DNA of 63,620 nucleotides from Candidatus Kerfeldbacteria bacterium (GCA_903825245.1 CAIJZX010000032.1:1-63620); one strand, 5' to 3'; shown: positions 4,285-53,064, counted from the first letter of the stretch. Notes: generated from the sequence alone by a model not told the origin. Numbers and translations are program-made.

Positions 4285-5526
4285 CTATTTTTTGCTAATC
4301 GGCGCTTCTCCAATATTCAAAAATGGCAAAATCGCCATCACCACAAACAGAATCATCAGATCGTTCTTGAACAATGGTGTATCGACAAATCCGTGAGCTA
4401 GTATCGCCAGCATTGCGGCCACGGCAATCGTTGCTATGATATTACCTGAGGCAGTTTTTTTCCACAGAACAATTACCCAACTCACGATAAACACCATAAA
4501 GATAATAAGTCCGAGCAAGCCGGTTTCAAGCCACAGGGCAAGGAAGAGTTGGTGTGGTTGCGACACCAACCACTCCAGTGGTGGCCAATATAATTTCGGG
4601 ATCGTTTCACGATAGATATTTTCATAGGCATTTGGTCCAACACCAAACCATGGCCGATCCTTTATCATCTCCACTGAGGTTCGCCAAATTTGCGTACGTA
4701 CTAGGCTTGAGGAGCGATCGCTAGCCGTAACTTTTTCTGCAAGGTAGCTCGTCTTTGATAATACGCCAACACCAAAAAGAAAAACCGCGCCGGCGATCAT
4801 CAGCGCCATACCGCGCTGTCGACGGCTCGGCCAGCGCCACCAGAGAAATGCGAGTCCGACAATCAATGACAGGTATCCGCCGAATGACACGGTTAGAATA
4901 AGCGCAATAAACATTACACCGACGGCAGCCCACCAGCTTCGTCCAAGAATTTTCCACAGTATCGCCCCAACCGTCACAACGAGAATCGGCGCCAGAAACA
5001 TCGCCGCATAGTTTGCTACCGGATGGAAAAATGAACTGAGGCGGTGATCTTGCAATGTGTCGCGCCACCAAATAAATTGCGCGAACCCGGCCAGGGCTAC
5101 CATTGTTCCGCTCAGCACCAAGCTTTTCAGAAGCAGCGCACGCTGTGGTGTTGAGCGAATATACAGCAATAACAAAGTGCCATAGAGCAACGGATCGATC
5201 AGCCACGCCTTAAAGGCGCCGAGGCTTGCTTGGCAATCGGTTGAATTGAGTGTTGACAGTGTCCAAGCAATAACCCATACCACAATAGAAATAAGAAACC
5301 AGCGCGGCAATCTCGGCCACATGAAATCTTTTTTGATTGCCGTAACAATCGCGCAAGCAAGGGCGACCGAATAAATGGCCAACTCAAGTGCTGTCGTCGG
5401 TACGCCAAAGAGTTTTGTTCGCAGAAGATAACTCGGCAAAAGCAACAGAGTCGCCGCAACACCAATTTCGCGGCGCCAGAGCGTCAACAGAAACATGGCC
5501 GCGCAAATAAGGATAATCCAGATCAT
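4285..5526 (-). CDS. O-antigen ligase/polymerase-like (Wzy_C-type) polytopic membrane protein
   Basis: About 10+ TM segments with a large loop. Start set at ATG 5526, which overlaps the upstream stop (ATGA). Confidence 0.6.
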   Translation of the reverse strand: MIWIILICAAMFLLTLWRREIGVAATLLLLPSYLLRTKLFGVPTTALELAIYSVALACAIVTAIKKDFMWPRLPRWFLISIVVWVIAWTLSTLNSTDCQASLGAFKAWLIDPLLYGTLLLLYIRSTPQRALLLKSLVLSGTMVALAGFAQFIWWRDTLQDHRLSSFFHPVANYAAMFLAPILVVTVGAILWKILGRSWWAAVGVMFIALILTVSFGGYLSLIVGLAFLWWRWPSRRQRGMALMIAGAVFLFGVGVLSKTSYLAEKVTASDRSSSLVRTQIWRTSVEMIKDRPWFGVGPNAYENIYRETIPKLYWPPLEWLVSQPHQLFLALWLETGLLGLIIFMVFIVSWVIVLWKKTASGNIIATIAVAAMLAILAHGFVDTPLFKNDLMILFVVMAILPFLNIGEAPISKK

Positions 5527-6896
5527 GTTTTTGATGGTTGACGTACCGCAATAGCCATCGCCACAAGTAACCACATCAGTTCCATCAAGTGCGGATACTG
5601 CAAACCGTTGACGAATTGGCTGTGGGCAAATAAACCGAGCATGCCAGCAAATGCACCGAGGCCAAAGCCGCGCCACTCTGCAGATAGTGCCCTATCTTTC
5701 CATGTCTTCCAAAGTTCTAACAACATGGCCACAAAGAGCCATAAGTATACGGCGAGACCGATAGTGCCGGTCGTCACCCACACCGTTAACAAGCTCGAAT
5801 CAGAACCGCTGGCGGAGTGCTCACTCGTTGTGGTCATGAAATTATATTCCACTTGGACGTACTTATAGAGGTTGTACCCGATACCGAGCCATGGATGATC
5901 GCCGATGACCGTGAAAGCATTTTGGTACGACACGAGGCGTAATTGAGCTGTCTCATCAATAGTGCGAATACCGATAACGCGCTCCTGAACGCGCGGTACG
6001 AATAGAATAACCGACATCATCGCTAACAATCCGATAATCAACATCGTCCGCGATCGAAATAACGCCACAAAACCCATGGCGATGACGAAGCCGACGTAGC
6101 CGCTGCGTGAGTATGTTAAAACTGTTGCCAGTGTTAGCGCAACCACCGCCACCCACCACCAGCGCGCCTGTCGGAATGGAACGGAGAGTGCGACACCGAG
6201 CGCCACGGCCGTGATAACGGTAAACAGTCCGCCGAGGTAATTCGGGTCAAACCACGTGGAGAGCAGGCGGCCGATGTGCGGATCCCAACCCTTCGGTACC
6301 ATCGAAGAAAAATCTGGAAACACCTTGAGTTGAATGAACCCGAGCACCGCCAGAACAACACCGACCCACACCAGTAACGACAAATACTTATGCGCGCGTT
6401 GGTGAGTGCGGAAGTAATCTTGGCCAATCCAAAAGAGCGCTAAGTATTCGATCCAGCGAACGAAATATAGCGAGCCACTCCACCACTCAGACGCGTTCTC
6501 GCGGCCAATGTTCGCCACCAACGACAAGCCCATGATGGTAATCATCAATACCAACGGCAAGGTGAGACTATGCTTACGAAGTCCCCAGTGTTGGCTCGCC
6601 AAGCGGCGCAACGTCCACACCACGATAAGCGCAGGAATAATGACGTCGTTTGGTAGAATTTCACTACTGCCAACCGGGATGCGAATAAGCTGACCAATGA
6701 TAATTGATCCGATGCTGGCAATGAATGCTGTTTCCGGATAGAGAAACACAATCACACCAATGAGCGCACCGCCGATAGCAATCGAACCGAGCAAAAAGTG
6801 GCTACCCACCATCCAAGCGGTTGCTAAAATAACTACCAAAGAACTGACAATAGTGATTGTCGCTCGATGTCGGTGAATATGGTGACGAAGGTTCAT
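5523..6896 (-). CDS. O-antigen ligase/polymerase-like polytopic membrane protein (paralog)
   Basis: Same architecture as the gene at 4285-5526; start at ATG 6896 overlaps the GT2 stop (ATGA). Confidence 0.6.
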   Translation of the reverse strand: MNLRHHIHRHRATITIVSSLVVILATAWMVGSHFLLGSIAIGGALIGVIVFLYPETAFIASIGSIIIGQLIRIPVGSSEILPNDVIIPALIVVWTLRRLASQHWGLRKHSLTLPLVLMITIMGLSLVANIGRENASEWWSGSLYFVRWIEYLALFWIGQDYFRTHQRAHKYLSLLVWVGVVLAVLGFIQLKVFPDFSSMVPKGWDPHIGRLLSTWFDPNYLGGLFTVITAVALGVALSVPFRQARWWWVAVVALTLATVLTYSRSGYVGFVIAMGFVALFRSRTMLIIGLLAMMSVILFVPRVQERVIGIRTIDETAQLRLVSYQNAFTVIGDHPWLGIGYNLYKYVQVEYNFMTTTSEHSASGSDSSLLTVWVTTGTIGLAVYLWLFVAMLLELWKTWKDRALSAEWRGFGLGAFAGMLGLFAHSQFVNGLQYPHLMELMWLLVAMAIAVRQPSKT

Positions 6897-7777
6897 GCTC
6901 GTGAAGTATGCACGAGTTTTTTCGCCTGCGCAAACGACTGCCATGGCGCCAGCAACCACGAAATTTTTCCGTGACCATAGTACAACCAGCACGCGGCCAT
7001 CGCTCGCGCCTTTCGCACCAGGAGCATTGGCAGATAGCGATTCGGAAAATGTTTCAGGAAGAAGTAGTTTTCGTTAAAAAAGAAGTCGCGATACCACGTC
7101 AATCGATCCGCCGTTCGCGATCCACCCGCTAGGGCTAGGTGAGTCAGGCTTGCCCGCGGCTCAAATACGATCCGCCAACCAGCTTCCACCACGCGCAGTG
7201 AGAAATCCGTTTCTTCGCGCATGGCGTTCCCGCGAAATTGTTCATCGAACATACCGACATCGACGATAATCTGTTTTCGAAAGGACATGTTGCCGCCGCG
7301 CGGTGCATTGATGTCTTGCGACACTGTTGATGTCGCGTTCGGATAAATACGTCCGGTTTTTGTAACACGGCAGACTGGACCGGTTTGTTCGCGATTAAGT
7401 TCTTGATTGACATCCAGCACGCGACCGCCAACGCCGGCGATGTTTTCATCATCGTAGTGGCTAGAATGAGCCAACAAAAACTTATTGTCTGCTAAGCGCA
7501 CATCGTCGTCGGTAAAAACAATAATAGCACCTTGCGCCGCGCGAACACCGGTGTTTCGCGCTACACATGTGCCACCAGTAGTAATCCGTATCACCCGCAA
7601 ACGTGAGTCGTTTTTGGCAATGTCTGCTAACTGTATATTTTCAGCTGTACTTGCATCTACCACGATCATTTCAAACCGCGGATAGTCTTGGGTTTGAAAA
7701 TCATGGACGAGATCAACGATCGCTTGCGGGCGATTCAGCGTGGGCACAACAACAGAAAGTAGTGGTTGTTCAATCAT
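6893..7777 (-). CDS. Glycosyltransferase family 2
   Basis: LSVVVPTLNRP..., VVDAS, FTDDD motifs typical of the GT-A/GT2 fold. Confidence 0.8.
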   Translation of the reverse strand: MIEQPLLSVVVPTLNRPQAIVDLVHDFQTQDYPRFEMIVVDASTAENIQLADIAKNDSRLRVIRITTGGTCVARNTGVRAAQGAIIVFTDDDVRLADNKFLLAHSSHYDDENIAGVGGRVLDVNQELNREQTGPVCRVTKTGRIYPNATSTVSQDINAPRGGNMSFRKQIIVDVGMFDEQFRGNAMREETDFSLRVVEAGWRIVFEPRASLTHLALAGGSRTADRLTWYRDFFFNENYFFLKHFPNRYLPMLLVRKARAMAACWLYYGHGKISWLLAPWQSFAQAKKLVHTSRA

Positions 7778-42535: not shown

Positions 42536-43508
42536 ACGCCGGTCGATAGAACAGTGCAGCCTCTTCCGGCGGCACCGTGTTTACGACGAGTCGTGACCCA
42601 AGCTCAACGCCAGCCCAGACATCTCGACGTGGGGCAACCCGAAGGTACATGTGTTCGCCGCGGTCGCCGACGACCTGGTGCAGGTAGTAGTTGTATGGTA
42701 AGTGTAACTCGCCCACCTTCATCAGGATTGTTTTGAGGTAGTGCGCCATTTCCTTAATTTCGCCGTCTGAGAGAAGTCCAATATTGTCGACACGTCGCCA
42801 GGGCATAATCCATGCTTCGTAGTTGTATAGCGAGGCGTAGGGCGCTAGGGCGCACACGTGCTTGCCGGACGCGATCCATCGCGGACCATTTTCTTCGCCG
42901 ATAAGTAAGTCGCTGTAATAATCGCGATTGTGTTGGATACGATACTCTTCAGCGCGTTCCCGACGGGTAATAATGTGCGGCGGAACGTATTGTGAGGCAA
43001 AAATCTGGGAGTGGGCGTGATTAATCGAGGCGCCGGCACTTCCACCGTTGTTCTTAAAAATTAAGATGTAGCGGATTTTTTTATCGCGCTGGAGTTGACG
43101 CATGCGCTTGCCGTAGACACGAAGCAGGTCGGCAATGTGTTCTTCCGGCAGGGTCGAAAGCTCAACGCCATACTTTGGTGTTTCCACTACCACCTCTTGG
43201 TAGCCATATGCCTTAGGATTTTCCGGAGTAACGACTGGAAAAATATTTTTTATCACCTTGATGCGCCATGATTTTTGGCCACCGACCGTCAAGAGCGCTT
43301 TTACGCCACGCAGATTTTCTGTAGAGAAAACATCCTTTGCTGGGGTGGCGCTGGATGCGGTGGCCTCAAAATTTGGGTTCACCGTATCGTGCGGACGCCG
43401 ATTACGACCAGGTGCAATAATTACCTGCCGGTCGTGAACATAGTCTTCACGGATTTCAGCTTGCGGCGTTGGTGGAACCTCAAGTTTCGATGTAGGATTT
43501 TCTGGCAT
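42513..43508 (-). CDS. GalT-family (HIT superfamily) hexose-1-phosphate nucleotidyltransferase-like protein
   Basis: HxHxQ motif INHAHSQIF; two half-barrel repeats; no N-terminal Cys zinc motif. Confidence 0.65.
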   Translation of the reverse strand: MPENPTSKLEVPPTPQAEIREDYVHDRQVIIAPGRNRRPHDTVNPNFEATASSATPAKDVFSTENLRGVKALLTVGGQKSWRIKVIKNIFPVVTPENPKAYGYQEVVVETPKYGVELSTLPEEHIADLLRVYGKRMRQLQRDKKIRYILIFKNNGGSAGASINHAHSQIFASQYVPPHIITRRERAEEYRIQHNRDYYSDLLIGEENGPRWIASGKHVCALAPYASLYNYEAWIMPWRRVDNIGLLSDGEIKEMAHYLKTILMKVGELHLPYNYYLHQVVGDRGEHMYLRVAPRRDVWAGVELGSRLVVNTVPPEEAALFYRPAFTNEPKV

Positions 43509-44934
43509 ACGTATAGAGGTTACTATAGTCGCTGGCTGAACGCGCCCACGAGAAGTCTTCGGTCATATCTCGGGTACGCACAGCTTGTAGTTTATCGTGT
43601 TCGTGATAGAGACGCAATGCGGCAACAATAGTTGTTCGTAGTGCGCCGGCAATCGGGTCAGAAAAAACAAAACCGGTTCCGTCCGGATGAAGCGATGTGT
43701 CGCGGACAGTATCATGTAGCCCGCCCGTGTCGCGGACGATTGGAATGGCACCATAGCGCATAGCAATCATCTGCCCCAAGCCACACGGCTCGAATCGCGA
43801 TGGCATCAGAAAAAAATCACTGGCGGCATAAATCCGCTGAGCGAGCGCCGCATCAAACCGTAAAATTGTCTTACAAGCCGACGGAAATGCCTTGGTGGCG
43901 GAGACAACCAACTCTTCGACCTCAGGTACGCCGCTACCAAGGATGACCACTTGGCCGCCAGCGTTAACGATATCGCCAATAACACTAGCCACCAAGTCGA
44001 CGCCCTTTTGCGAGGTGAGTCGACCAACAAGCCCAAAGAGCGGCCCATCGCTATCTGGTAATCCAAGTTCTTTTCGAAGTGCGCGCTTGTTGATGAGTTT
44101 GCCAACGACGGCGGTCGAGGCAGAATATTGGGCTGGAATTCGCGAGTCCGTTTCCGGATTAAATACTGCCACGTCAATTCCATTCACAATCCCCCGCATA
44201 CCGTCCGGCCGGGACTGAATATCGCGCTCAAGTCCGGCGCCGTATAGCGGAGACAGCACCTCAATCGCGTATTGCGGACTAACGGTAGTGACGACGGTGG
44301 CGGTACGGATACCCGACTGGAGGGCGTTGAGGTTATTATCAACATCGCGAAACTCAAGCCCCGGAACCTCGTGGCCGGTAAGCCCGAGCCAAGAAAAAAC
44401 CTCTTCCGCCCGCCAGCGTCCCTGGCTTTCCATGTTGTGGATCGTGAGCATGGTCGGAAGGCGCACCTTTTTGACCGCCAGGAGCGCTGGTAACAAACCG
44501 GTGTGCCAATCATGGCAATGAATAACATTAATCGGCCAATTCAATAACGTGGCGCAGTGCGCGGCCGCCCACGAAAAAAACGTGTATCGCTCTTCAGCAA
44601 GCCGAATACCTTCGGGACCATTGTGTTCATAATAAATCGCGTCGCCCTCAAACAGTGTTGGCGTTTCCAGGAGGTATAATGTCGTCGCGGTTGGTAGTAA
44701 TGTCGATTCAATAACTTTCACCGGCACTTGTTGGCCGCGCCAAAGCACAACCGTTTCGACAACAATACGTTTTTCCGGTGCCCGGTCGGCGGTGATGACA
44801 CTGTATTTTGGCAACATGACGCGAACATCGTGACCTAATGCCGATAATGCGGACGGCAAAGCGCCAACAACGTCGGCCAAGCCACCGACCTTTATCAGTG
44901 GCGCCGCCTCAGATGCGACGAAGAGAATATTCAT
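43480..44934 (-). CDS. glgA: Glycogen/starch synthase (GT5), copy 1
   Basis: MNILFVASEAAPLIKVGGLADVV, HCHDWHT, PSRFEPCGL. Confidence 0.92.
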   Translation of the reverse strand: MNILFVASEAAPLIKVGGLADVVGALPSALSALGHDVRVMLPKYSVITADRAPEKRIVVETVVLWRGQQVPVKVIESTLLPTATTLYLLETPTLFEGDAIYYEHNGPEGIRLAEERYTFFSWAAAHCATLLNWPINVIHCHDWHTGLLPALLAVKKVRLPTMLTIHNMESQGRWRAEEVFSWLGLTGHEVPGLEFRDVDNNLNALQSGIRTATVVTTVSPQYAIEVLSPLYGAGLERDIQSRPDGMRGIVNGIDVAVFNPETDSRIPAQYSASTAVVGKLINKRALRKELGLPDSDGPLFGLVGRLTSQKGVDLVASVIGDIVNAGGQVVILGSGVPEVEELVVSATKAFPSACKTILRFDAALAQRIYAASDFFLMPSRFEPCGLGQMIAMRYGAIPIVRDTGGLHDTVRDTSLHPDGTGFVFSDPIAGALRTTIVAALRLYHEHDKLQAVRTRDMTEDFSWARSASDYSNLYTYARKSYIET

Positions 44935-45977
44935 GATTGTGTGAGGAGCTTAACAAGCACGTCAATTCGCTTGGTAAGAAGCTGACAGTAGGCTCGACCA
45001 GGATTATTGTCTTCGCCAAGCGTCTGAAGCGTGATGGAGAGAATATCAATTGCTGAACGCAACTCAAAAATCGGTACATCAGCTGCGGTTTTTCGCCAAG
45101 ACACCGCACCAATACTTTTTGCATAGCCCTGTAAAAAACGCTCGCGCCAATGCTGTACCCGCGATTCAGCCACACGGCCGTGGCACATGACTGCCAGGTG
45201 GGTGACAAACGTTCCAAGGTCAAACGCGGTTGGACCGACGCCGCTCAACGTAAAATCAATAATCCCAATAGCCGACCCAAGAATAATATTACTAGCCTGG
45301 AAGTCTTTATGGGTGAGCCCTGGCTGACGGCTCCACGCCAGTCTTTCATGGGTTTGTAAGACAGTAATTACTCGAGTCGCCCAAGTGCGGCGCGATGGTG
45401 ATCGACGCACAATGGCGGCGTGGCAGGTGCGTAGAAAATCTACCTCTTGGCGCCAATGTAATTGACGTAGCCCACGTGCTGGGGTGCAATGAAACGCAGC
45501 GAGTGAGCCGCCGATTGACTCGGCAATGGCCGGCCAACGCGACGACGTGAAGGCGAGTTGACGTAATGTTGACCCACTCGTTTCTTCATAGAGGATATAC
45601 CCGGGCGGTGTCAGATAATCGAGCGGACGCGGCGAACGAAAAACGTGTTTCGTTTGTGCGAGACGACGAAAGATGGCCGACGTTTGCTGATCGACAGTGT
45701 TTCCGCGAACATGGTGGACACGTTTTCCGTTGGGATACTGAACGGTGACATCAAATCGCGTTAGGTAGCTCGACGTGGAGAGCGTTGGTCGGTGTGTATA
45801 TCGGCAGCTAACAACACGCATTGCCCCGGGGAAGAACGCTTGTTCCCGGCGTGAAAAAAACCCTCGCATCGCTTCCGGCGAAGCCAGCGAAGTAAAAAAG
45901 CGTTGATGTGGCGCTGGCTGTAAGCCGGTGCTACGCGCTGGAGCCGGTGATGTCTGCTTTCTTAGCATTGAGTTCAA
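44931..45977 (-). CDS. Protein-kinase-like fold phosphotransferase (APH/maltokinase-like)
   Basis: Brenner motif LTHKDFQASNIIL, downstream IDF; start uncertain because it overlaps the GH57 3' end. Confidence 0.55.
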   Translation of the reverse strand: MNSMLRKQTSPAPARSTGLQPAPHQRFFTSLASPEAMRGFFSRREQAFFPGAMRVVSCRYTHRPTLSTSSYLTRFDVTVQYPNGKRVHHVRGNTVDQQTSAIFRRLAQTKHVFRSPRPLDYLTPPGYILYEETSGSTLRQLAFTSSRWPAIAESIGGSLAAFHCTPARGLRQLHWRQEVDFLRTCHAAIVRRSPSRRTWATRVITVLQTHERLAWSRQPGLTHKDFQASNIILGSAIGIIDFTLSGVGPTAFDLGTFVTHLAVMCHGRVAESRVQHWRERFLQGYAKSIGAVSWRKTAADVPIFELRSAIDILSITLQTLGEDNNPGRAYCQLLTKRIDVLVKLLTQS

Positions 45978-47319
45978 TAACGCGATCGCGAAGTTGGGCT
46001 GCCCGTTCGTATTCTTTGTGGCTCGCCGAGGCTAGCATCTGCTTTTCCAAATTATTCACCATATTTTCGAACTCTTCGAGCGGAATGTGCGGCATTTCTT
46101 TGGTGATGCGCTGAGTAACATCTTCATCCGAGGCCTTAATGCGTTCGGCAATTTTATCGTTGCGTTGCCAATCGAAGGCAGTGAAGACGATGCCGCGATA
46201 CAGCTCTTCGGCGCGCGTCTTTTCTGTACCTGTAGCTTGCGGGTTGTCGAGGACTACGTCACGAAGCTCCTTGGCGCCCATTTCCATCATTTCGATGCTC
46301 CACCATGGACTAGCCGACGCCCACCAGTACTGATCGGAGTGGACGGCGCGATCGAGTGCATGGCGAACTGTTTTCCAGGCCGGATTTTTTTCATCGAGCT
46401 TCTTGAAACTGTCGATTGCCAAGTACGTGAGTTCCCACTGCATCTTGTGTATTTCATTTGTTTCGTCCTGCCAGCGCGAGAACGGCGTATTTTGCTCTAA
46501 ATCTTTTTTCATCAATGCCCAACTCGACGGCAACGGTTCAACCTCGGCGCGCTTGGTGACAACTTTTCGCAATTCCGATAACGTGACCGACTTCAATTCC
46601 GGCACGTTATACATTTCAAACAGCAAGGCATCGAGTCCCGGGCGGTGGTGGCCGAACGTTTCACCGTCCATCGCGGTCAGCAGGTATTCATCGGAGTTCA
46701 CGCGATCGCCGAGGAGTTTTAATAACATGCCGGCGGAAAAAACGCTGACGCCGACCTCGGCTGAGAGAATACGGAAACTTGCATCGCGTTCGCGGAAGAA
46801 AATCGAGAAGTCGTCGCTGTTTTTCAGAGTGTAAATCGTGTCGCGGCGGATATCGTGCATCTTGCCACTGAAAGCTAACTCATCGATGATTAACCAATCG
46901 AAACCCATGGAGCGCACGACATCGGCAACTTTTCGATTGTAGCCCATTTCCGGCGGGAAGAAACCTTTCGGGTTGTAGGCATCGCCGAAGTAATGGCGAT
47001 TTGTTTCTGTATTGAGCTCGATTTGGCGGCGAATTTCTGATTCGGGCATCAGCGGCAGGAACGGATGGTATTTTGCGCTGGCGGTGAACTCGATTTGTCC
47101 GCGTTCGGCGAGCGTTCGCAGACCGTCGATAACATCATGCGCGCCGTATTTATCGAAAAACTCAACTAAGACGGCATTAATGTTCAGTGTGGCCCTTGCT
47201 TGTGGATTTTCTAGCCAACCTTTCACCAGGACGCGGTAACACTCGTTGGTAATTTTCTTCACCCAGTATTCTTTTTGCGTCGGCGGCTGGTAGAAGTGGA
47301 GGAAATTTGCCCAAAGCAT
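45931..47319 (-). CDS. GH57-family glycoside hydrolase-like protein with C-terminal UVR motif, copy a
   Basis: MLWANFLHFYQPP..., ...DGETFGHH...; C-terminus LEKQMLASASHKEYERAAQLRDRVIEL. Confidence 0.8.
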   Translation of the reverse strand: MLWANFLHFYQPPTQKEYWVKKITNECYRVLVKGWLENPQARATLNINAVLVEFFDKYGAHDVIDGLRTLAERGQIEFTASAKYHPFLPLMPESEIRRQIELNTETNRHYFGDAYNPKGFFPPEMGYNRKVADVVRSMGFDWLIIDELAFSGKMHDIRRDTIYTLKNSDDFSIFFRERDASFRILSAEVGVSVFSAGMLLKLLGDRVNSDEYLLTAMDGETFGHHRPGLDALLFEMYNVPELKSVTLSELRKVVTKRAEVEPLPSSWALMKKDLEQNTPFSRWQDETNEIHKMQWELTYLAIDSFKKLDEKNPAWKTVRHALDRAVHSDQYWWASASPWWSIEMMEMGAKELRDVVLDNPQATGTEKTRAEELYRGIVFTAFDWQRNDKIAERIKASDEDVTQRITKEMPHIPLEEFENMVNNLEKQMLASASHKEYERAAQLRDRVIELNAKKADITGSSA

Positions 47320-47473
47320 ACGATATTTAGTGCATCAATAAGTGGTTGCAGTATACCGCACTTTTGGTTGTTTTTCCATGTTTTGTATTGATGGTCTTGC
47401 GACAATAAATACAGCACAGATATGGATTAGCGGAGGTTAGTCAGGGTTGTTGGTTAAGTAAAACACCCATCAT

Positions 47474-47504
47474 AAATAAAAAGACTACCAATGCATTGGT
47501 AGTC
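47474..47504 (-). terminator. Rho-independent terminator ending the rSAM operon
   Basis: Perfect 22-nt palindrome GACTACCAATGCATTGGTAGTC (47483-47504), followed on the minus strand by TTTTTATTT. Confidence 0.8.
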
Positions 47505-47533
47505 ATAGTACAGAGCGGTCGTATATTTAGTGG

Positions 47534-48820
47534 TTAGAGGACCAGGCTGTTGTTCAAAGAAATGATGAAAAAATTTCTTGGAACAAGCATGGTCATGACT
47601 CGATGAAATTCAGCATCATCAGTCGTCGTGCAAAATTGTTCGGCCAGGCGGTTTAACGACATCGGTGCCGCTGTTCTGGTGGCAACGATGAAATCCCGTA
47701 GCGCCTGGTTGATGTGCAAAATGTCGCGTGAGCGTCCCGATGTTACCAACCATCCATCGCCATCCGGGCGTTCGAGATACTTGCGACTAGGTCGAACGAT
47801 GGTCGTCGGGTAAAGATCGGGAGGAGGCGCCAACGTCAACACTGGTTCACTTGAGATCATCAATTCCTCAAGCGCTCCAGCTTCACGCACAGCGGCATCG
47901 ATCGGACATCCACCACTTGTGGCAACATCGCAGGCCAAACAACTCCGGTGTGTGTTACCAACAGCGGATCGCCAATCCTGCATACGTTCCCAAATAGAAC
48001 CGAGGCTCTCATTCAGGACGTTTCCATAAACACGAGGATTGTGTCCGCAAGGACGCACGTCACCGTTAACCGCGATCGTTCCATTACGTTTGCCGGCATT
48101 GCAGGCCCGAAAAACAAACGGCAGTCGCAGATCAAAGGCTCGTTGCGGAATGACTCGCCGTGGCAAAGCCTCCATCACATCTACGTCGAGACCAAGCGTT
48201 TCATGCGCCCACACGAGATCGGACAACACCTGCCGTGTTTCCGCCAAAGATAACGGCAGTTCAAACTGTGGCGCACGCGCATTGAGACTCACCGGCGTTG
48301 CGGCAAAACGTCGAACACCGAGCTCAGCCATACGAATAGCCGTAGCCCGAACATCATCACGATTCAACTGGCTAACAACCATGTTGACGGTGTGATTGAC
48401 GCCCGTGGAGACGACCTGCCGTAGATTCGTTTCGAATCGGTCGTAGTTCCCGCCACCAGTGATATGCCGGTACTGCTCCGGTGTACTCGATGGACAGGAA
48501 ATCAGGTAGTGATCAACCCGAAGTTCGGACAACACCTCATCTGTCAATGGCGCCAGACAGGTATTTAGCGAGAGGATGGTACCGTGATTGGCCAAATACT
48601 TCGACAACTCAATGACCAAACGACGACGGGTCAGTGGTTCACCTCCAGTGAACGTGACGAAGAAAATACGATTCCGAACGATGTGTTCGGCGATGCGAAA
48701 CATCTCGTCGTCCGACAAGTCAGCTGTCCGTTGAGGGATAGCGGCACTGAGTAAGTAGCAGTGCAGGCAACGGTACGGACAATGTTCGGTCAACTCCCAC
48801 TGCAGGACTGCGGGGATCAT
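47534..48820 (-). CDS. Radical SAM enzyme with SPASM/twitch-type auxiliary Cys cluster and PqqD-like (RRE-like) C-terminal extension
   Basis: CPYRCLHC (Cx3Cx2C) near the N-terminus; CX12GX4C then CLACDVATSGGC; C-terminal ~100 aa ...WLVTSGRSRDILHINQALRDFIVATRTAAPMSLNRLAEQF...FHRVMTMLVPRNFFI. Confidence 0.8.
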   Translation of the reverse strand: MIPAVLQWELTEHCPYRCLHCYLLSAAIPQRTADLSDDEMFRIAEHIVRNRIFFVTFTGGEPLTRRRLVIELSKYLANHGTILSLNTCLAPLTDEVLSELRVDHYLISCPSSTPEQYRHITGGGNYDRFETNLRQVVSTGVNHTVNMVVSQLNRDDVRATAIRMAELGVRRFAATPVSLNARAPQFELPLSLAETRQVLSDLVWAHETLGLDVDVMEALPRRVIPQRAFDLRLPFVFRACNAGKRNGTIAVNGDVRPCGHNPRVYGNVLNESLGSIWERMQDWRSAVGNTHRSCLACDVATSGGCPIDAAVREAGALEELMISSEPVLTLAPPPDLYPTTIVRPSRKYLERPDGDGWLVTSGRSRDILHINQALRDFIVATRTAAPMSLNRLAEQFCTTTDDAEFHRVMTMLVPRNFFIISLNNSLVL

Positions 48821-48841
48821 GACTCACTCCTTGTGGTTGGA

Positions 48842-49489
48842 TTACTCGGTTATAGATTGTAAAGATCGTTCGATCGTTTGTTTGATGTCATGTGTATTAC
48901 GATACTCCTTTAGGATCGTAGCTCGAAGCTCTTGATGTTGCGGATAACCAATATCTTGAATCCCGGGCATCAGATCACTAAATTCTTCATTGAGTAGCAC
49001 TGTTAGGGCTTCCTTCATATCATTCGAAACTTTTGCTCCGTGTTTGACCTGGATCTCATCCCTAAAAAACGCATAATAGTACCAATGCCATAATTCATGC
49101 ATCAGTGTTTTCGTAACAGCCTTCAGGTTTGTATGAATAAAGAAATATCCACGCTCATAGTTATATGAGCATCGATCATGAACCGTTAAGTATACCGTCA
49201 ACCGATCCATTGGTAATGGTTTACCAAATATTGCATTTGCCCGGGTAAAGTATTTCGTTTCAATGGCGATCCAGTTTGCCTCAATGTCAGACAATACTTT
49301 ATTCGGATCGATGTTGTGTTCCCGAAGATACCATTCGGAAAAGGCAATGGCGTTTGGGCGAGTCAGTTCAGCGTAGTGCTCAAAAAAAAGAACTTGGCGC
49401 GGACTTGCTTGGGCATGATTTTTTGAACCAAAAGCCGCGCGGAAGTTTTCATATTCGTAAGATGGGTCGTAGCGAAAGTTGATGGTCAT
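48842..49489 (-). CDS. HExxH (HELWH) protein, putative metallopeptidase-like partner
   Basis: TLMHELWHWYYY motif; 21 nt upstream of the rSAM start; visibly AT-richer than its neighbours. Confidence 0.55.
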   Translation of the reverse strand: MTINFRYDPSYEYENFRAAFGSKNHAQASPRQVLFFEHYAELTRPNAIAFSEWYLREHNIDPNKVLSDIEANWIAIETKYFTRANAIFGKPLPMDRLTVYLTVHDRCSYNYERGYFFIHTNLKAVTKTLMHELWHWYYYAFFRDEIQVKHGAKVSNDMKEALTVLLNEEFSDLMPGIQDIGYPQHQELRATILKEYRNTHDIKQTIERSLQSITE

Positions 49490-49541
49490 GATAAAAAGTG
49501 GGAGAGTGGATCAGGTTCTCCCGTGTGTGATGTACAGACTT

Positions 49542-49673
49542 CTAGTAGTTGTCAGTATTCCCGTCGTCACAGCCGCCATCGCAATCGCAGTTCTCGGTCT
49601 GAGCCGAGACCAGCTTCATGCCAGCGAACGGTGAAGGACGGGAATCCTCCAACATCACATTGTCGTGGTCCAT
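49542..49673 (-). CDS. 43-aa Cys/Asp-rich peptide, candidate RiPP precursor (MDHDNVMLEDSRPSPFAGMKLVSAQTENCDCDGGCDDGNTDNY)
   Basis: Hand translation; GGGAGG RBS 5 nt upstream of ATG; first gene of the operon, 52 nt upstream of the HExxH gene; below the ORF-track cutoff. Confidence 0.6.
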   Translation of the reverse strand: MDHDNVMLEDSRPSPFAGMKLVSAQTENCDCDGGCDDGNTDNY

Positions 49674-49775
49674 GTGGACCTCCCGAGAAGATAGCTCATT
49701 ATCATCGCGCGGTTGCGCAACAGGCCTGACAGATCCAAGTCAGAAACCGAATGTTAATGAGCTTGTCTGCACAGG

Positions 49776-49804
49776 ACACTAACGGCAAAGACTAAATATG
49801 TCAA
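49776..49804 (-). promoter_or_regulatory. Promoter candidate TTGACA-N17-TAGTGT for the peptide operon
   Basis: Minus-strand TTGACA at 49804-49799 and TAGTGT at 49781-49776. Confidence 0.45.
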
Positions 49805-49822
49805 GCGCCGTCGCGACGGCGC
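49805..49822 (-). terminator. Perfect 18-nt GC palindrome GCGCCGTCGCGACGGCGC downstream of GH57 copy b
   Basis: Read directly; lies immediately upstream of the -35 element. Confidence 0.5.
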
Positions 49823-49891
49823 ACATGAGCCTTAATCCAACACAGCCCCTTGTCGAGAGCAAGCATGTTTTTGTTACAACCCCCTGTTACG

Positions 49892-51112
49892 TTACACCCG
49901 CTTCCCACCCATAAACCGGATGTCGCCGGTTTGTTGTAAATACGTTCCTTGCCGGTGTTTCGCTAAGCCGGTTTTTTCCCAAAGCTCGGTTGTGGTGGCG
50001 ACTTGTTGCATCAATCGTTCAGCGGCATTCATGGTTTTTGTCGGCACACGCGTCAGTGTCGCGAGTACGTCGACCAAGCGCTGTGTTTCGCGGATGACAA
50101 TCGTCATGTCCCACCACGGACTAGCCGATGCCCACCAGTATTTATCTGATGTTAAAGCCATATCGAGCAAGCGGCGAGCAACTTCAAACGTCGGATCGCT
50201 TTCGGCGCTTCGCACAGCGGTGATAACGAGGTGCGTGAGTTGCCACTGGAGCTTGTGAATCGGATTATTCGGATGGTTCCACAGGCCGAACGGAATATTG
50301 GCGGTAATTTCTTGTGGTTGCGACGACCAACTGCCGTCGTGAAGCTCAATTACCGATTCTGTTGATTGTCGGTCGCGGTATTCCGAAACGGTTTCGGTTG
50401 CAATCTCCGGCCAGGTAACGAGTATCTCCCAGAGACGATCAACGCCGGCGCGATGGTGGCCGAGATTCTCTCCGTCCATCGCCGTTACTAGGCCAGCCGT
50501 GGTTCGTATATCTCCCTGGAGCGCGGCGACAGACTTTTCCGGCTGATCAATAGTCGCTGAAAATGACAAAAAGTCGCTCAAGAAGCGATTGCGAAACACG
50601 ACGCCAAGTCCGCCACCGGTCATATAGCGCCGATCAAAAAGCGTGGTGCCAAGTGGTTGACCAGAACACACCTCATCAATAATTATCCATTCGTAACCAC
50701 GGTTGATCAGTATCGGCTCCAGCGACGCACTGTAGGCCATTTCTGGTGCGTAGAAGCCCTTGGGGTGGAAGGCTGAGCCGAATGTCTCTCGACAGACAAT
50801 TTCTTGTAGTTCGATTTGGCGGACAATTTCTTCGGCCGGCAATAGCGGTAAAATTGGATGATATTTTGCGCTGCCAACCAACTCGATTTGTCCGCGCTCG
50901 GCGAGGCGGCGAATGCTCTGCAGAACATCGGTTAATCCAAGCGCGACCAACTGATCAATGAGCGAGCCGGTAATATTGAGCGTAATTTTAATTTCCGGAT
51001 GTTGCTGTAAAATAGCTACCATCGGTTGGTAGGCTTCGGCCGTGGCGCGACGAACAATCGCCTCATCCCACGCCGGCGGTTGGTAGATATGAAAAAAATT
51101 ACTCCAGTGCAT
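49892..51112 (-). CDS. GH57-family glycoside hydrolase-like protein, copy b (no UVR tail)
   Basis: MHWSNFFHIYQPP..., ...DGENLGHH...; roughly 45% identical by eye to copy a over the N-terminal 150 aa. Confidence 0.8.
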   Translation of the reverse strand: MHWSNFFHIYQPPAWDEAIVRRATAEAYQPMVAILQQHPEIKITLNITGSLIDQLVALGLTDVLQSIRRLAERGQIELVGSAKYHPILPLLPAEEIVRQIELQEIVCRETFGSAFHPKGFYAPEMAYSASLEPILINRGYEWIIIDEVCSGQPLGTTLFDRRYMTGGGLGVVFRNRFLSDFLSFSATIDQPEKSVAALQGDIRTTAGLVTAMDGENLGHHRAGVDRLWEILVTWPEIATETVSEYRDRQSTESVIELHDGSWSSQPQEITANIPFGLWNHPNNPIHKLQWQLTHLVITAVRSAESDPTFEVARRLLDMALTSDKYWWASASPWWDMTIVIRETQRLVDVLATLTRVPTKTMNAAERLMQQVATTTELWEKTGLAKHRQGTYLQQTGDIRFMGGKRV

Positions 51113-52571
51113 GGTGCGCCGCAATCGTTCGCTTGTAGAGGTCGACGTACTGTTTGGCCGGCAAACCCCAGGAGAATGATTGGCGCATCGCCTGCCAGGT
51201 GAGGTGTTCCCAAACGCGAGGGTATTTATAGGTTTCGATGGCGCGGGTCATGGCCATAATCAGATCCGGGCCGGTGTAGTTGTAGAGGACGAAGCCGGTG
51301 CCGACGCCGGTGCGCGGATCGAAGTCGGTAATGGTATCAGCTAAACCGCCGGTGCGATGGACGATCGGAATGGAACCGTAGCGCAAACTGATGAGCTGAG
51401 AAATACCGCACGGTTCATAGCGACTCGGCATCAAGAACATATCGGAAGCGGCGTAGATGCGGGATCCGACGGCTTCGGAGAACTCCAGATGCACCGCCAC
51501 TTGGTGCGGATACTTCTTGGCCATTTGCCGGAAGAAATTCACGTAGCCGCGATCACCGCCACCGACGACGACTAGTTGCACCTGCTGGCGCATGAGTACC
51601 GGAAAAATTTCCATGATGAGGTCGAATCCTTTTTGTTCAGTCAATCGGTGAACCATTCCAATCAAGGGTACGTCTTTTCGTTCCGGTAGATGGAATTCTT
51701 TTTGTAACAGGCGTTTATTTTCAGCTTTTTTATCAAGCGAGTTCCAATCGTAATGAATTTTTAGGTGCTGATCGAAACTCGGGTTGAAAATCGTATAGTC
51801 GATGCCGTTAATAATGCCGAAAACACGATCTTGTCGCCGGCGTAGAACACCATCGAGACCTTCACCGAATTTTTTGGTCATAATTTCCTCGGCATAGCGA
51901 ACACTAACGGCGCTGATCGCGTCGGCGTTTTTAATAGCGCGCAACGCAAAGTTGGTGGTGCGGATTGTGGCGGTGTCAACCGGTGGCAAACCCCGACCTT
52001 GGTCGCGTTTTTCGGGCGGCAAGTTAAACCACATGCCTTGCATTTGGTAGAGCAGGTTGTGAATGGTGAAAACACTAACCGTATCTCGCCACAGAGGGTT
52101 TTTCCGATATTCACAATTGAGGTAGTTCGGAATAAGTCCAGTGTGCCAGTCATGACAATGAAGAACATCCGGAATATGCCCGAGAAATTCGAAGAGCAAA
52201 AACACCGCTCGATCAAATACTTGGAAGCGCAGGTTGTCGTCAGGATAACCAAACGAGCGGTCGCGCTCGGTAAAAAGTTCGTCCTGAGCTAAAAAGTACA
52301 CCGGCACCTTACTGTGCTCAGAGAGTTCACCACGATAAAAACGAATCGGGTATTCCTTTTTACCCAAGGTTACAACGCTATCGCCGAGATGTGTCACCGG
52401 CAGTGATTGGGCGGCAATTTGTTTGTAGTACGGCGTGACGACGGAAACTTCGTGCCCGAGACCCTTCACGTGCTTCGGCAGGGCGTTCGCGACGTCGGCT
52501 AAGCCGCCGGTTTTGCTGAACGGGCTGACCTCCCAGGAAACGATGGCGATGTGGAGTGGTCGATCGGACAT
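51099..52571 (-). CDS. glgA: Glycogen/starch synthase (GT5), copy 2
   Basis: LHIAIVSWEVSPFSKTGGLADVANALP, HCHDWHT, PSRYEPCGI; start at ATG 52571. Confidence 0.9.
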   Translation of the reverse strand: MSDRPLHIAIVSWEVSPFSKTGGLADVANALPKHVKGLGHEVSVVTPYYKQIAAQSLPVTHLGDSVVTLGKKEYPIRFYRGELSEHSKVPVYFLAQDELFTERDRSFGYPDDNLRFQVFDRAVFLLFEFLGHIPDVLHCHDWHTGLIPNYLNCEYRKNPLWRDTVSVFTIHNLLYQMQGMWFNLPPEKRDQGRGLPPVDTATIRTTNFALRAIKNADAISAVSVRYAEEIMTKKFGEGLDGVLRRRQDRVFGIINGIDYTIFNPSFDQHLKIHYDWNSLDKKAENKRLLQKEFHLPERKDVPLIGMVHRLTEQKGFDLIMEIFPVLMRQQVQLVVVGGGDRGYVNFFRQMAKKYPHQVAVHLEFSEAVGSRIYAASDMFLMPSRYEPCGISQLISLRYGSIPIVHRTGGLADTITDFDPRTGVGTGFVLYNYTGPDLIMAMTRAIETYKYPRVWEHLTWQAMRQSFSWGLPAKQYVDLYKRTIAAHHALE

Positions 52572-52575
52572 AGAC

Positions 52576-53064
52576 TTAGTGTAGCACTTTCGAAGCCGAT
52601 CCGCAGAGGGCAATGGCGATCGCATCAACCGTATCGTCGTGTTTTGGAAGTCGCGTGAGATTGAGAAGTAACTGAATCATCCGTCCCATCTGTCGTTTAT
52701 CGGCTCGACCATCGCCGGTGACTGACGACTTGACGGAGGTCGGCGTGTATTCATCAACCGGTAATCCGTGCTCGGCTGCGGCCAGGATGAGTACGCCGCG
52801 TGCGTGAGCAACAGCGATGCCGGTGGTGACGTTCTTCGTGAAGAAAAGTTTTTCCACAGCCATACGATCCGGACGATATTCGCGAATAATGTCGGTGACG
52901 CGCTCGTGCAACGTTTGTAATCGGTGCTCGAGTAATTGGCCGGCGGTCGTTTCAACACACCCACACCCAACTAACGCCGCTGTGCCGCTGCGATTTTCAA
53001 TAATCGCCCAACCCAACCGGGCTAAGCCAGGATCGATGCCAAGGACTCGGATATTATGCTTCAT
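52576..53064 (-). CDS. ruvC: Crossover junction endodeoxyribonuclease RuvC
   Basis: VLGIDPGLARLGWAII..., EKLFF, D..DAIAIA. Confidence 0.9.
   Translation of the reverse strand: MKHNIRVLGIDPGLARLGWAIIENRSGTAALVGCGCVETTAGQLLEHRLQTLHERVTDIIREYRPDRMAVEKLFFTKNVTTGIAVAHARGVLILAAAEHGLPVDEYTPTSVKSSVTGDGRADKRQMGRMIQLLLNLTRLPKHDDTVDAIAIALCGSASKVLH

Follow-up and report, generated by a model that had tools for sequence, protein, structure and literature searches.

Peptide maturases that join a radical S-adenosylmethionine (rSAM) core, a SPASM domain and a fused recognition element are already known from the pathways of peptides that are synthesised by ribosomes and modified after translation (RiPPs). 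CteB and PapB (thermocellin SCIFF and freyrasin) have this composition, with a RiPP recognition element (RRE) and a Cys-rich precursor encoded alongside. The gene analysed here lies on the minus strand at 47534..48820 of a 63,620-nucleotide stretch from an ultra-small bacterium of the candidate phyla radiation (CPR), a Candidatus Kerfeldbacteria bacterium (GCA_903825245.1 CAIJZX010000032.1:1-63620; the term window means this whole stretch) and encodes a 428-aa enzyme of the same known kind, an rSAM/SPASM maturase with a predicted RRE at its C-terminus, as judged from the open reading frame (ORF) call, Pfam, the Shine-Dalgarno (SD) sequence, AlphaFold2 (AF2) and PDB fold matches. What is new in it is that the domains stand in permuted order, that the RRE is specific to the family and escapes sequence profiles, that the precursors form a family not described before, and that ligands of the second auxiliary cluster (Aux II) have been lost as a derived trait.

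CteB and PapB differ from the window enzyme in that their RRE is N-terminal, whereas that of the window enzyme follows the SPASM domain, and they share less than 20% sequence identity with it. Moreover, the window copy lacks two SPASM cysteines, and its precursor family, recognizable by an F-x-x-M motif and CD repeats, is unrelated to theirs. CteB and SkfB, the sporulation killing factor sactisynthase, carry a three-Cys cluster with an open coordination site, proposed to bind a substrate cysteine (PMC8326336), and this resembles the state that we propose for the window enzyme; SkfB has one auxiliary cluster and is the top match both by fold and by profile. However, SkfB has an N-terminal RRE and a truly shortened twitch domain, whereas the window enzyme has a full-length SPASM polypeptide and, according to the phylogenetic tree, seven-Cys ancestors. 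PapB cross-links Cys and Asp at spacings of 0-6 residues, that is, adjacent residues included (PMC9413430), and by likeness to it a Cys-to-Asp cross-link is plausible for the window enzyme. QhpD, the rSAM/SPASM thioether synthase of quinohemoprotein amine dehydrogenase, which uses an RRE, makes S-C-beta(Asp) and S-C-gamma(Glu) links (PMC13692751) and is like our proposal in these respects, but its substrate is a protein subunit, its architecture and gene context are different, and the best sequence matches do not include it. PqqE is the closest PDB sequence match (E 5e-8) and its third Aux II ligand position can be occupied by a residue other than Cys; unlike the window enzyme, it relies on a separate protein, PqqD, as its RRE, and its product is a Glu-Tyr C-C bond. 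Finally, a C-terminal RRE has been reported for the proteusin rSAM epimerases of the PoyD/OspD type (PMC8326336), such that a tail-placed RRE on an rSAM enzyme has precedent; those enzymes, unlike the one in the window, hold the rSAM cluster only, with no SPASM or twitch domain, and have nitrile-hydratase-like leaders and an unrelated chemistry.

Organization of the maturase and its cassette

The Pfam family Radical_SAM (PF04055) matches residues 9-160 of the window enzyme at 64 bits (cut-off 29.5) and SPASM (PF13186) matches residues 240-298 at 32.5 bits (cut-off 21.5). The CX3CX2C motif of residues 14-21 (48758..48781, minus strand) is invariant in 34/34 aligned relatives, and the conservation of C14, C18 and C21, together with the fold matches to rSAM structures, places the protein in the radical SAM superfamily. 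The full-length AF2 model reached a predicted local distance difference test (pLDDT) score of 85.8, and its closest PDB folds are SkfB (E 2e-13), ahead of CteB and then SuiB; SkfB is also the best match of the profile (6e-23). An AAGGAG SD sequence is found 7 nt upstream of the ATG start codon. Since the CX3CX2C motif is close to the N-terminus and the aligned homologues begin with the same MIPA(L/V)VQWE as the window enzyme, the latter has no N-terminal domain. A wrongly assigned start codon hiding an N-terminal RRE was ruled out, as the same start is indicated by the SD site and by every homologue.

Three genes follow each other on the minus strand in the order precursor, HExxH protein, rSAM enzyme. 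The precursor ORF (49542..49673) has a GGGAGG SD sequence shortly upstream of its ATG and encodes a 43-aa peptide, MDHDNVMLEDSRPSPFAGMKLVSAQTENCDCDGGCDDGNTDNY, with an F-x-x-M motif in the leader and a core made of a Cys-Asp repeat. The HExxH protein (48842..49489, minus strand; 215 aa, MHELWHWYYY ... KEALTVLLN) shows a weak SprT-like Pfam match, and its KEALTVLLN segment supplies a downstream glutamate; it is a putative zinc leader peptidase, and its stop codon is located 21 nt ahead of the rSAM start. Small ORFs homologous to the precursor adjoin the rSAM gene in all the loci inspected (9/9, the window and L001-L008). The corresponding peptides read ...SRFASMEVFDTDTSCCDCDCDCDCGDTDNY in L001, ...SLFASMSAALQSQQADCDCDCDCDCDDGNIDDY in L002, ...SPFAEMKSGDGACGLCETCDCDGGCDDGNIDNY in L003 and ...SAFAGMCLLADSGSCDCDCDDGNIDNY in L004, and those of the distant members L005-L008 are rich in Cys-Asp/Asn and have F-x-x-M(K/R) leaders. 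None of the precursor peptides matched a Pfam or NCBIfam family. As in ranthipeptide and sactipeptide loci, an rSAM-SPASM enzyme is encoded beside a Cys-rich precursor. A homologue of the HExxH gene is found directly upstream of the rSAM gene in L002, L003 and L004 and adjacent to it in the Bacteroidota-like L005. The HExxH partner occurs in five loci; other HExxH proteins are encoded in L003 and L008. In L001 there is no HExxH gene, and a 160-aa transglutaminase-core (papain-like) protein is encoded directly downstream of the rSAM gene (5365-5847), which may be an alternative leader peptidase.

Proposed function of the maturase

We propose that the window gene codes for the maturase in a RiPP cassette of three genes, in which the Cys/Asp core would be modified under the guidance of the leader, probably by thioether formation and with one three-Cys auxiliary cluster; we regard this reading as fairly probable. 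The leader would be bound by the C-terminal RRE and the core fed into the active site. The 5'-deoxyadenosyl radical would then take a hydrogen atom from an acceptor residue, most likely from C-beta of an Asp, while the thiolate of a Cys, bound to the open iron of whichever auxiliary cluster lies closest to the active site, would close the thioether; afterwards, the leader would be cut off by the HExxH protein. The thioether step would follow a ranthipeptide/QhpD-type logic, as suggested by the precedents of PapB and QhpD mentioned above, and Cys together with Asp/Asn is the only core feature common to the precursors of the family. In line with this proposal, the structures that match the fold best are those of thioether synthases and of SuiB.

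Two sets of observations tell against this assignment. The first is that all five precursors of the CPR clade end in D-(N/D)-Y (D-N-Y in the window precursor), which may point to a chemistry at the C-terminal Tyr. The second is that no curated NCBIfam family was reached at its cut-off by the window enzyme, the top model scoring 76 bits against 395. The enzyme could instead form sactionines (S to C-alpha), act on the terminal Tyr in an MftC-like oxidative decarboxylation, or carry out epimerisation or Cys oxidation, and we consider one of these other chemistries possible, if on balance unlikely. In addition to the shared terminus, the weak matches to the MftC, PqqE and StsB models and the conservation of Cys109 (SCPS) in 32/34 members, a possible H-donor as in epimerases, would agree with them. 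Nevertheless, the terminal Tyr is absent from the precursors of distant members (...SIDD in L005, ...CDENA in L006 and ...SCNR in L008), in which the pairing of Cys with Asp/Asn motifs is what persists, and the MftC model TIGR03962 is far from being reached (59 bits against 265), the window precursor having no Val-Tyr terminus. Other maturase equivalogs were likewise missed by the window enzyme: StsB with 51 bits against 625, AlbA with 29.5 against 850, and the PqqE model TIGR02109 with 48 against 381.

Peptides made of Cys-Asp repeats represent an uncharacterised chemical space.

Loss of auxiliary cluster ligands

The window enzyme has cysteines at residues 14, 18, 21, 88, 109, 240, 258, 294, 297, 305 and 397. 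Five of them sit at SPASM-like positions, as the original prediction stated and as can be read directly from the sequence: C240-NAGKRNGTIAVN-G-DVRP-C258 conforms to CX12GX4C, and C294-LA-C297-DVATSGG-C305 to CX2CX7C. This reduced region, from C240 to C305 (47906..48103, minus strand), was delimited by alignment, motif scan and the AF2 model, and with its five cysteines it departs from the seven/eight-Cys SPASM motif (CX9-15GX4C, gap, CX2CX5CX3C, gap, C). The alignment, the cysteine table and a motif scan of all hits indicated that the full canonical CX2CX5CX3C is kept by 52/54 family members, in which a further near-invariant Cys, within the motif ALPKC, is placed 18 residues ahead of the first SPASM Cys to give seven cysteines in the extension. 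This upstream, seventh Cys is present in 32/34 relatives at the position where codon 222 of the window enzyme (48155..48157, minus strand) specifies Arg.

Among the 54 members, only the window protein (P0001) and P0002 depart from the canonical motif. P0002 is 71% identical to the window enzyme and comes from another sample (L009:236-1564). In both, CX2CX5CX3C is without its third Cys through a two-residue deletion, and Arg or Gln occupies position 222. That the two-codon deletion arose as an assembly artefact was ruled out, as P0002 has it in common and derives from an independent sample; a protein identical to that of the window is present on 4 contigs. In the maximum-likelihood tree, P0001 and P0002 form a clade (100/100) nested within the CPR clade (100/100) and sister to full-motif sequences. 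Because of this nesting, the reduced Cys set is a single secondary loss and not a family trait. No further case of the reduced motif was found in a scan of the genomes of 60 relatives.

The canonical SPASM ligands have been spelled out for CrpC: the ligands of Aux I, the first auxiliary cluster, are the two cysteines in CXnGX4C plus the final one in CX2CX5CX3C, and those of Aux II are the three in CX2CX5C plus a Cys further downstream (PMC13692751). Under this assignment, the window Aux I would keep C240, C258 and C305, so that one iron would stay open, as it does in CteB and SkfB, and Aux II would keep only C294 and C297. The Cys222/223 of the relatives may be a ligand of Aux I, like the upstream Cys of anSME and SuiB, or may stand in for the absent downstream ligand of Aux II. 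Whichever cluster it serves, three cysteines are left for the window Aux I and at most two for Aux II, such that a single auxiliary cluster is the most economical reading, and the window enzyme most likely works in this derived, twitch-like state of a SPASM enzyme. The original prediction had called it twitch-like, with one cluster. The part on the cluster remains plausible, since the number of cysteines is compatible with one cluster and the top fold is that of SkfB, but the enzyme does not belong to a twitch lineage: its polypeptide is untruncated, it is nested in a full-SPASM clade in which 52/54 members have the full motif, and it is better described as a degenerate SPASM protein. The label therefore suits the proposed function and not the ancestry.

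Some observations weigh against a single cluster. The final, eighth downstream SPASM Cys is not conserved anywhere in the family; the AF2 model has low confidence around C294-C305 and does not give the geometry of the cysteines; and in PqqE an Asp occupies the position that matches the deleted Cys (PMC8326336; alignment to the window enzyme), so that non-Cys ligands could rescue the second cluster in a similar manner, the candidates being Asp298 or residues of the conserved GGCPIDAAVRE. Two auxiliary clusters might then still be assembled, in an otherwise normal SPASM enzyme of unusual ligation in which residues other than Cys, or Cys residues of the Cys-rich substrate, replace the lost pair. 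The strong conservation of the remodelled stretch CLACDVATSGGCPIDAAVRE between P0001 and P0002 also suggests a retained, structured function. We find this arrangement rather doubtful, as Aux II is left with C294 and C297 as its only cysteines, the loop is two residues shorter and the AF2 confidence collapses there (pLDDT below 50 at residues 289-303 and 314-327), and both ligands are gone together in one lineage of the tree.

The loss of two near-invariant cysteines could also have killed the enzyme, the window copy being an inactivated relic in a decaying cassette, and the absence of the cassette from 4 congeneric genomes and from 58 of 60 relatives would be in line with it. We consider this improbable. 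The three genes are intact and have SD sites and a terminator, and the enzyme keeps CX3CX2C, GGEPL and 35 further invariant columns. The same changes are found in the 71%-identical relative, and residues 289-327, the remodelled segment, are 82% identical between P0001 and P0002, above the whole-protein average, with only 36% identity to the full-motif P0003; decay is thereby made less likely than a new configuration under selection.

The core CDCDGGCDDGNTDNY of the window precursor is paired with the five-Cys enzyme, and the near-identical core CDCDGGCDDGNIDNY of L003 is paired with a seven-Cys enzyme. We tentatively suggest, as one possibility, that within one orthologous family a SPASM enzyme has naturally given way to a form with a single auxiliary cluster, while the substrate hardly changed. 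If both the window and the L003 enzymes are active, Aux II would be dispensable for their chemistry, and the pair would serve as a natural experiment on what the second SPASM cluster does, a long-debated question. Combined with the RRE after the SPASM domain and with the Cys-Asp repeat precursors, such a transition would make the cassette a new RiPP class, typical of CPR bacteria, whose peptide may serve in metal binding or signalling. The two-member subclade, in which the Aux II ligands were lost and the type of substrate was kept, offers a comparative handle on that role.

Two further features of these proteins were noted in passing. Cys109 of the window enzyme (ISCPS; 48494-48496) is located just past barrel strand 4, is lacking in the two most distant members, and could be a hydrogen atom donor or a substrate contact. 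P0002 (L009:236-1564) has a C-terminal extension of 14 aa ending in ...SSAGNNDCGDCGD, which resembles the Cys-Asp core of the precursors.

The C-terminal RRE domain

The region that follows the SPASM domain, about 90 aa long, contains the predicted RRE-type domain (47561..47803, minus strand), delimited by AF2 models, Foldseek, a weak alignment to the TigE profile and a family-specific profile. The sequence that had been singled out from the window alone as a putative peptide-binding domain (WLVTSGRSRD...PRNFFI) corresponds to residues 354-417 and is conserved in all full-length relatives. Residues ~340-420 of the full-length AF2 model are predicted with confidence (pLDDT 83-96) and show strands at 341-344, 349-353, 356-360 and 368-370, followed by helices at 372-380, 389-395 and 403-412. 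A separate model of the domain (residues 330-428, built from nine family sequences; pLDDT 88) has strands at 12-15, 20-24, 27-31 and 38-41, then helices at 43-51, 60-66 and 74-83, and thus the two models agree on the order of strands and helices, which is that of an RRE. Strands ahead of helices are the RRE order, unlike the usual order of winged helix-turn-helix (wHTH) domains (PMC12710340). On the basis of these models, the window enzyme carries a beta3-alpha3 winged-helix domain of the RRE type at its C-terminus.

When the domain model was compared with the PDB by Foldseek, about 40 of the top 42 matches were RRE domains of RiPP enzymes (MccB, TigE, McbB, ThcOx, lasso B1, PqqD, CteB, MibB, the PbtF RRE and SuiB), with a highest probability of 1.0 and query TM-scores between 0.5 and 0.68, and the family profile gave a weak alignment of the C-terminal region to the RRE at the N-terminus of TigE. 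The C-terminal RRE-like domain of the original prediction is therefore borne out at the level of predicted structure. On the other side of the balance, the Foldseek E-values of the RRE matches are modest (0.015 to 1), and the Pfam family PqqD (PF05402) gave no match to the domain at E up to 10. A profile search against PDB sequences yielded for this domain only chance-level matches (Csm2, TFE), none of them significant, such that the domain was recognised only through structure prediction and Foldseek. The domain profile retrieved 63 proteins only out of 1.84 billion representatives, the match being C-terminal in proteins of ~430-450 aa or located in short fragments; this supports the distinct maturase clade suspected beforehand, and the domain is, as modelled, a divergent RRE specific to this rSAM family. 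That it is a DNA-binding or protein-protein module instead, for example one that docks the HExxH protein, would fit the generic nature of the winged helix as a fold, the weak sequence-profile matches to TFE and TcaR and the lack of a PqqD match in Pfam, but seems very improbable given the strand-before-helix order (PMC12710340), the prevalence of RREs among the Foldseek matches and the finding of the domain only in fusion with the rSAM family, beside peptides with a conserved leader motif.

Distribution of the family

A search of 5.8 billion proteins returned about 54 full-length relatives of the window enzyme, with identities of 26-71%. They cover 98% of its length, so the C-terminal domain is a feature of the family. 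Clustered at 50% identity, the rSAM family with the C-terminal RRE comprises ~60 clusters, most of which come from CPR bacteria; the relatives with a name belong to the CPR (Komeilibacteria, Falkowbacteria), and a Mariniphaga-like sequence of the Bacteroidota falls within a more distant branch. The SPASM-then-RRE order is thus common to a small, mainly CPR family.

In our literature searches on C-terminal RREs in SPASM enzymes and on CPR ranthipeptides, neither this rSAM family nor any RRE placed after a SPASM domain was found described, and the C-terminal RRE of the proteusin epimerases was the sole precedent to emerge. Genome mining is usually aimed at rSAM-SPASM maturases whose RRE is N-terminal or discrete, and few natural-product pathways are known from the CPR/Patescibacteria. 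An RRE that stands behind the SPASM domain and goes unnoticed by the PqqD profile implies that such clusters are overlooked by mining, notably in these bacteria.

The cassette is accessory: four genomes of the same genus lack it, and so do all but one of 60 relatives. The scan of those 60 related genomes gave a single, distant rSAM homologue, L011 (G032:C1:777443-778738), which is 37% identical to the window enzyme; its reading frame contains two TAG codons, so that either a pseudogene or stop-codon recoding may be involved.

Genomic surroundings of the cassette

Between the precursor and HExxH genes, a hairpin GGGAGA...TCTCCC followed by the T-run ACTTTTTAT was read from the sequence (49492..49522, minus strand) and is a possible attenuator; it was not flagged by the terminator scan, as its loop exceeds 8 nt. 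The scan did detect a terminator-like hairpin with a 9-bp stem and a T-run 30 nt past the rSAM stop codon (47483..47504, minus strand), which likely ends the operon.

The cassette is bracketed by two modules of GH57 and glycogen-synthase genes in the same orientation (window 43480-52628). The GC content is 41% in the HExxH gene and 53% in the rSAM gene, with 50% for the window, and the cassette region gives the impression of an accessory unit that was inserted and whose parts differ in origin. The GH57 protein encoded downstream of the cassette (45931-47319) has a C-terminal UVR motif of the UvrB/UvrC type (PF02151, E 9e-7), and the other GH57 copy (49892-51124) has none.

Genes for HisKA_7TM proteins (PF16927, the membrane sensor part of histidine kinases), one to three of them, are found beside the cassette in 4/4 CPR relatives inspected (L001:816-3549; L002:2244-2915 and 7384-7738; L003:7519-9287; L004:2524-4605). 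The genome of the window has three tandem PF16927 genes on another contig, away from the cassette (G000:C29:5205-7065). The HisKA_7TM neighbourhood may hint that the peptide is a signal.

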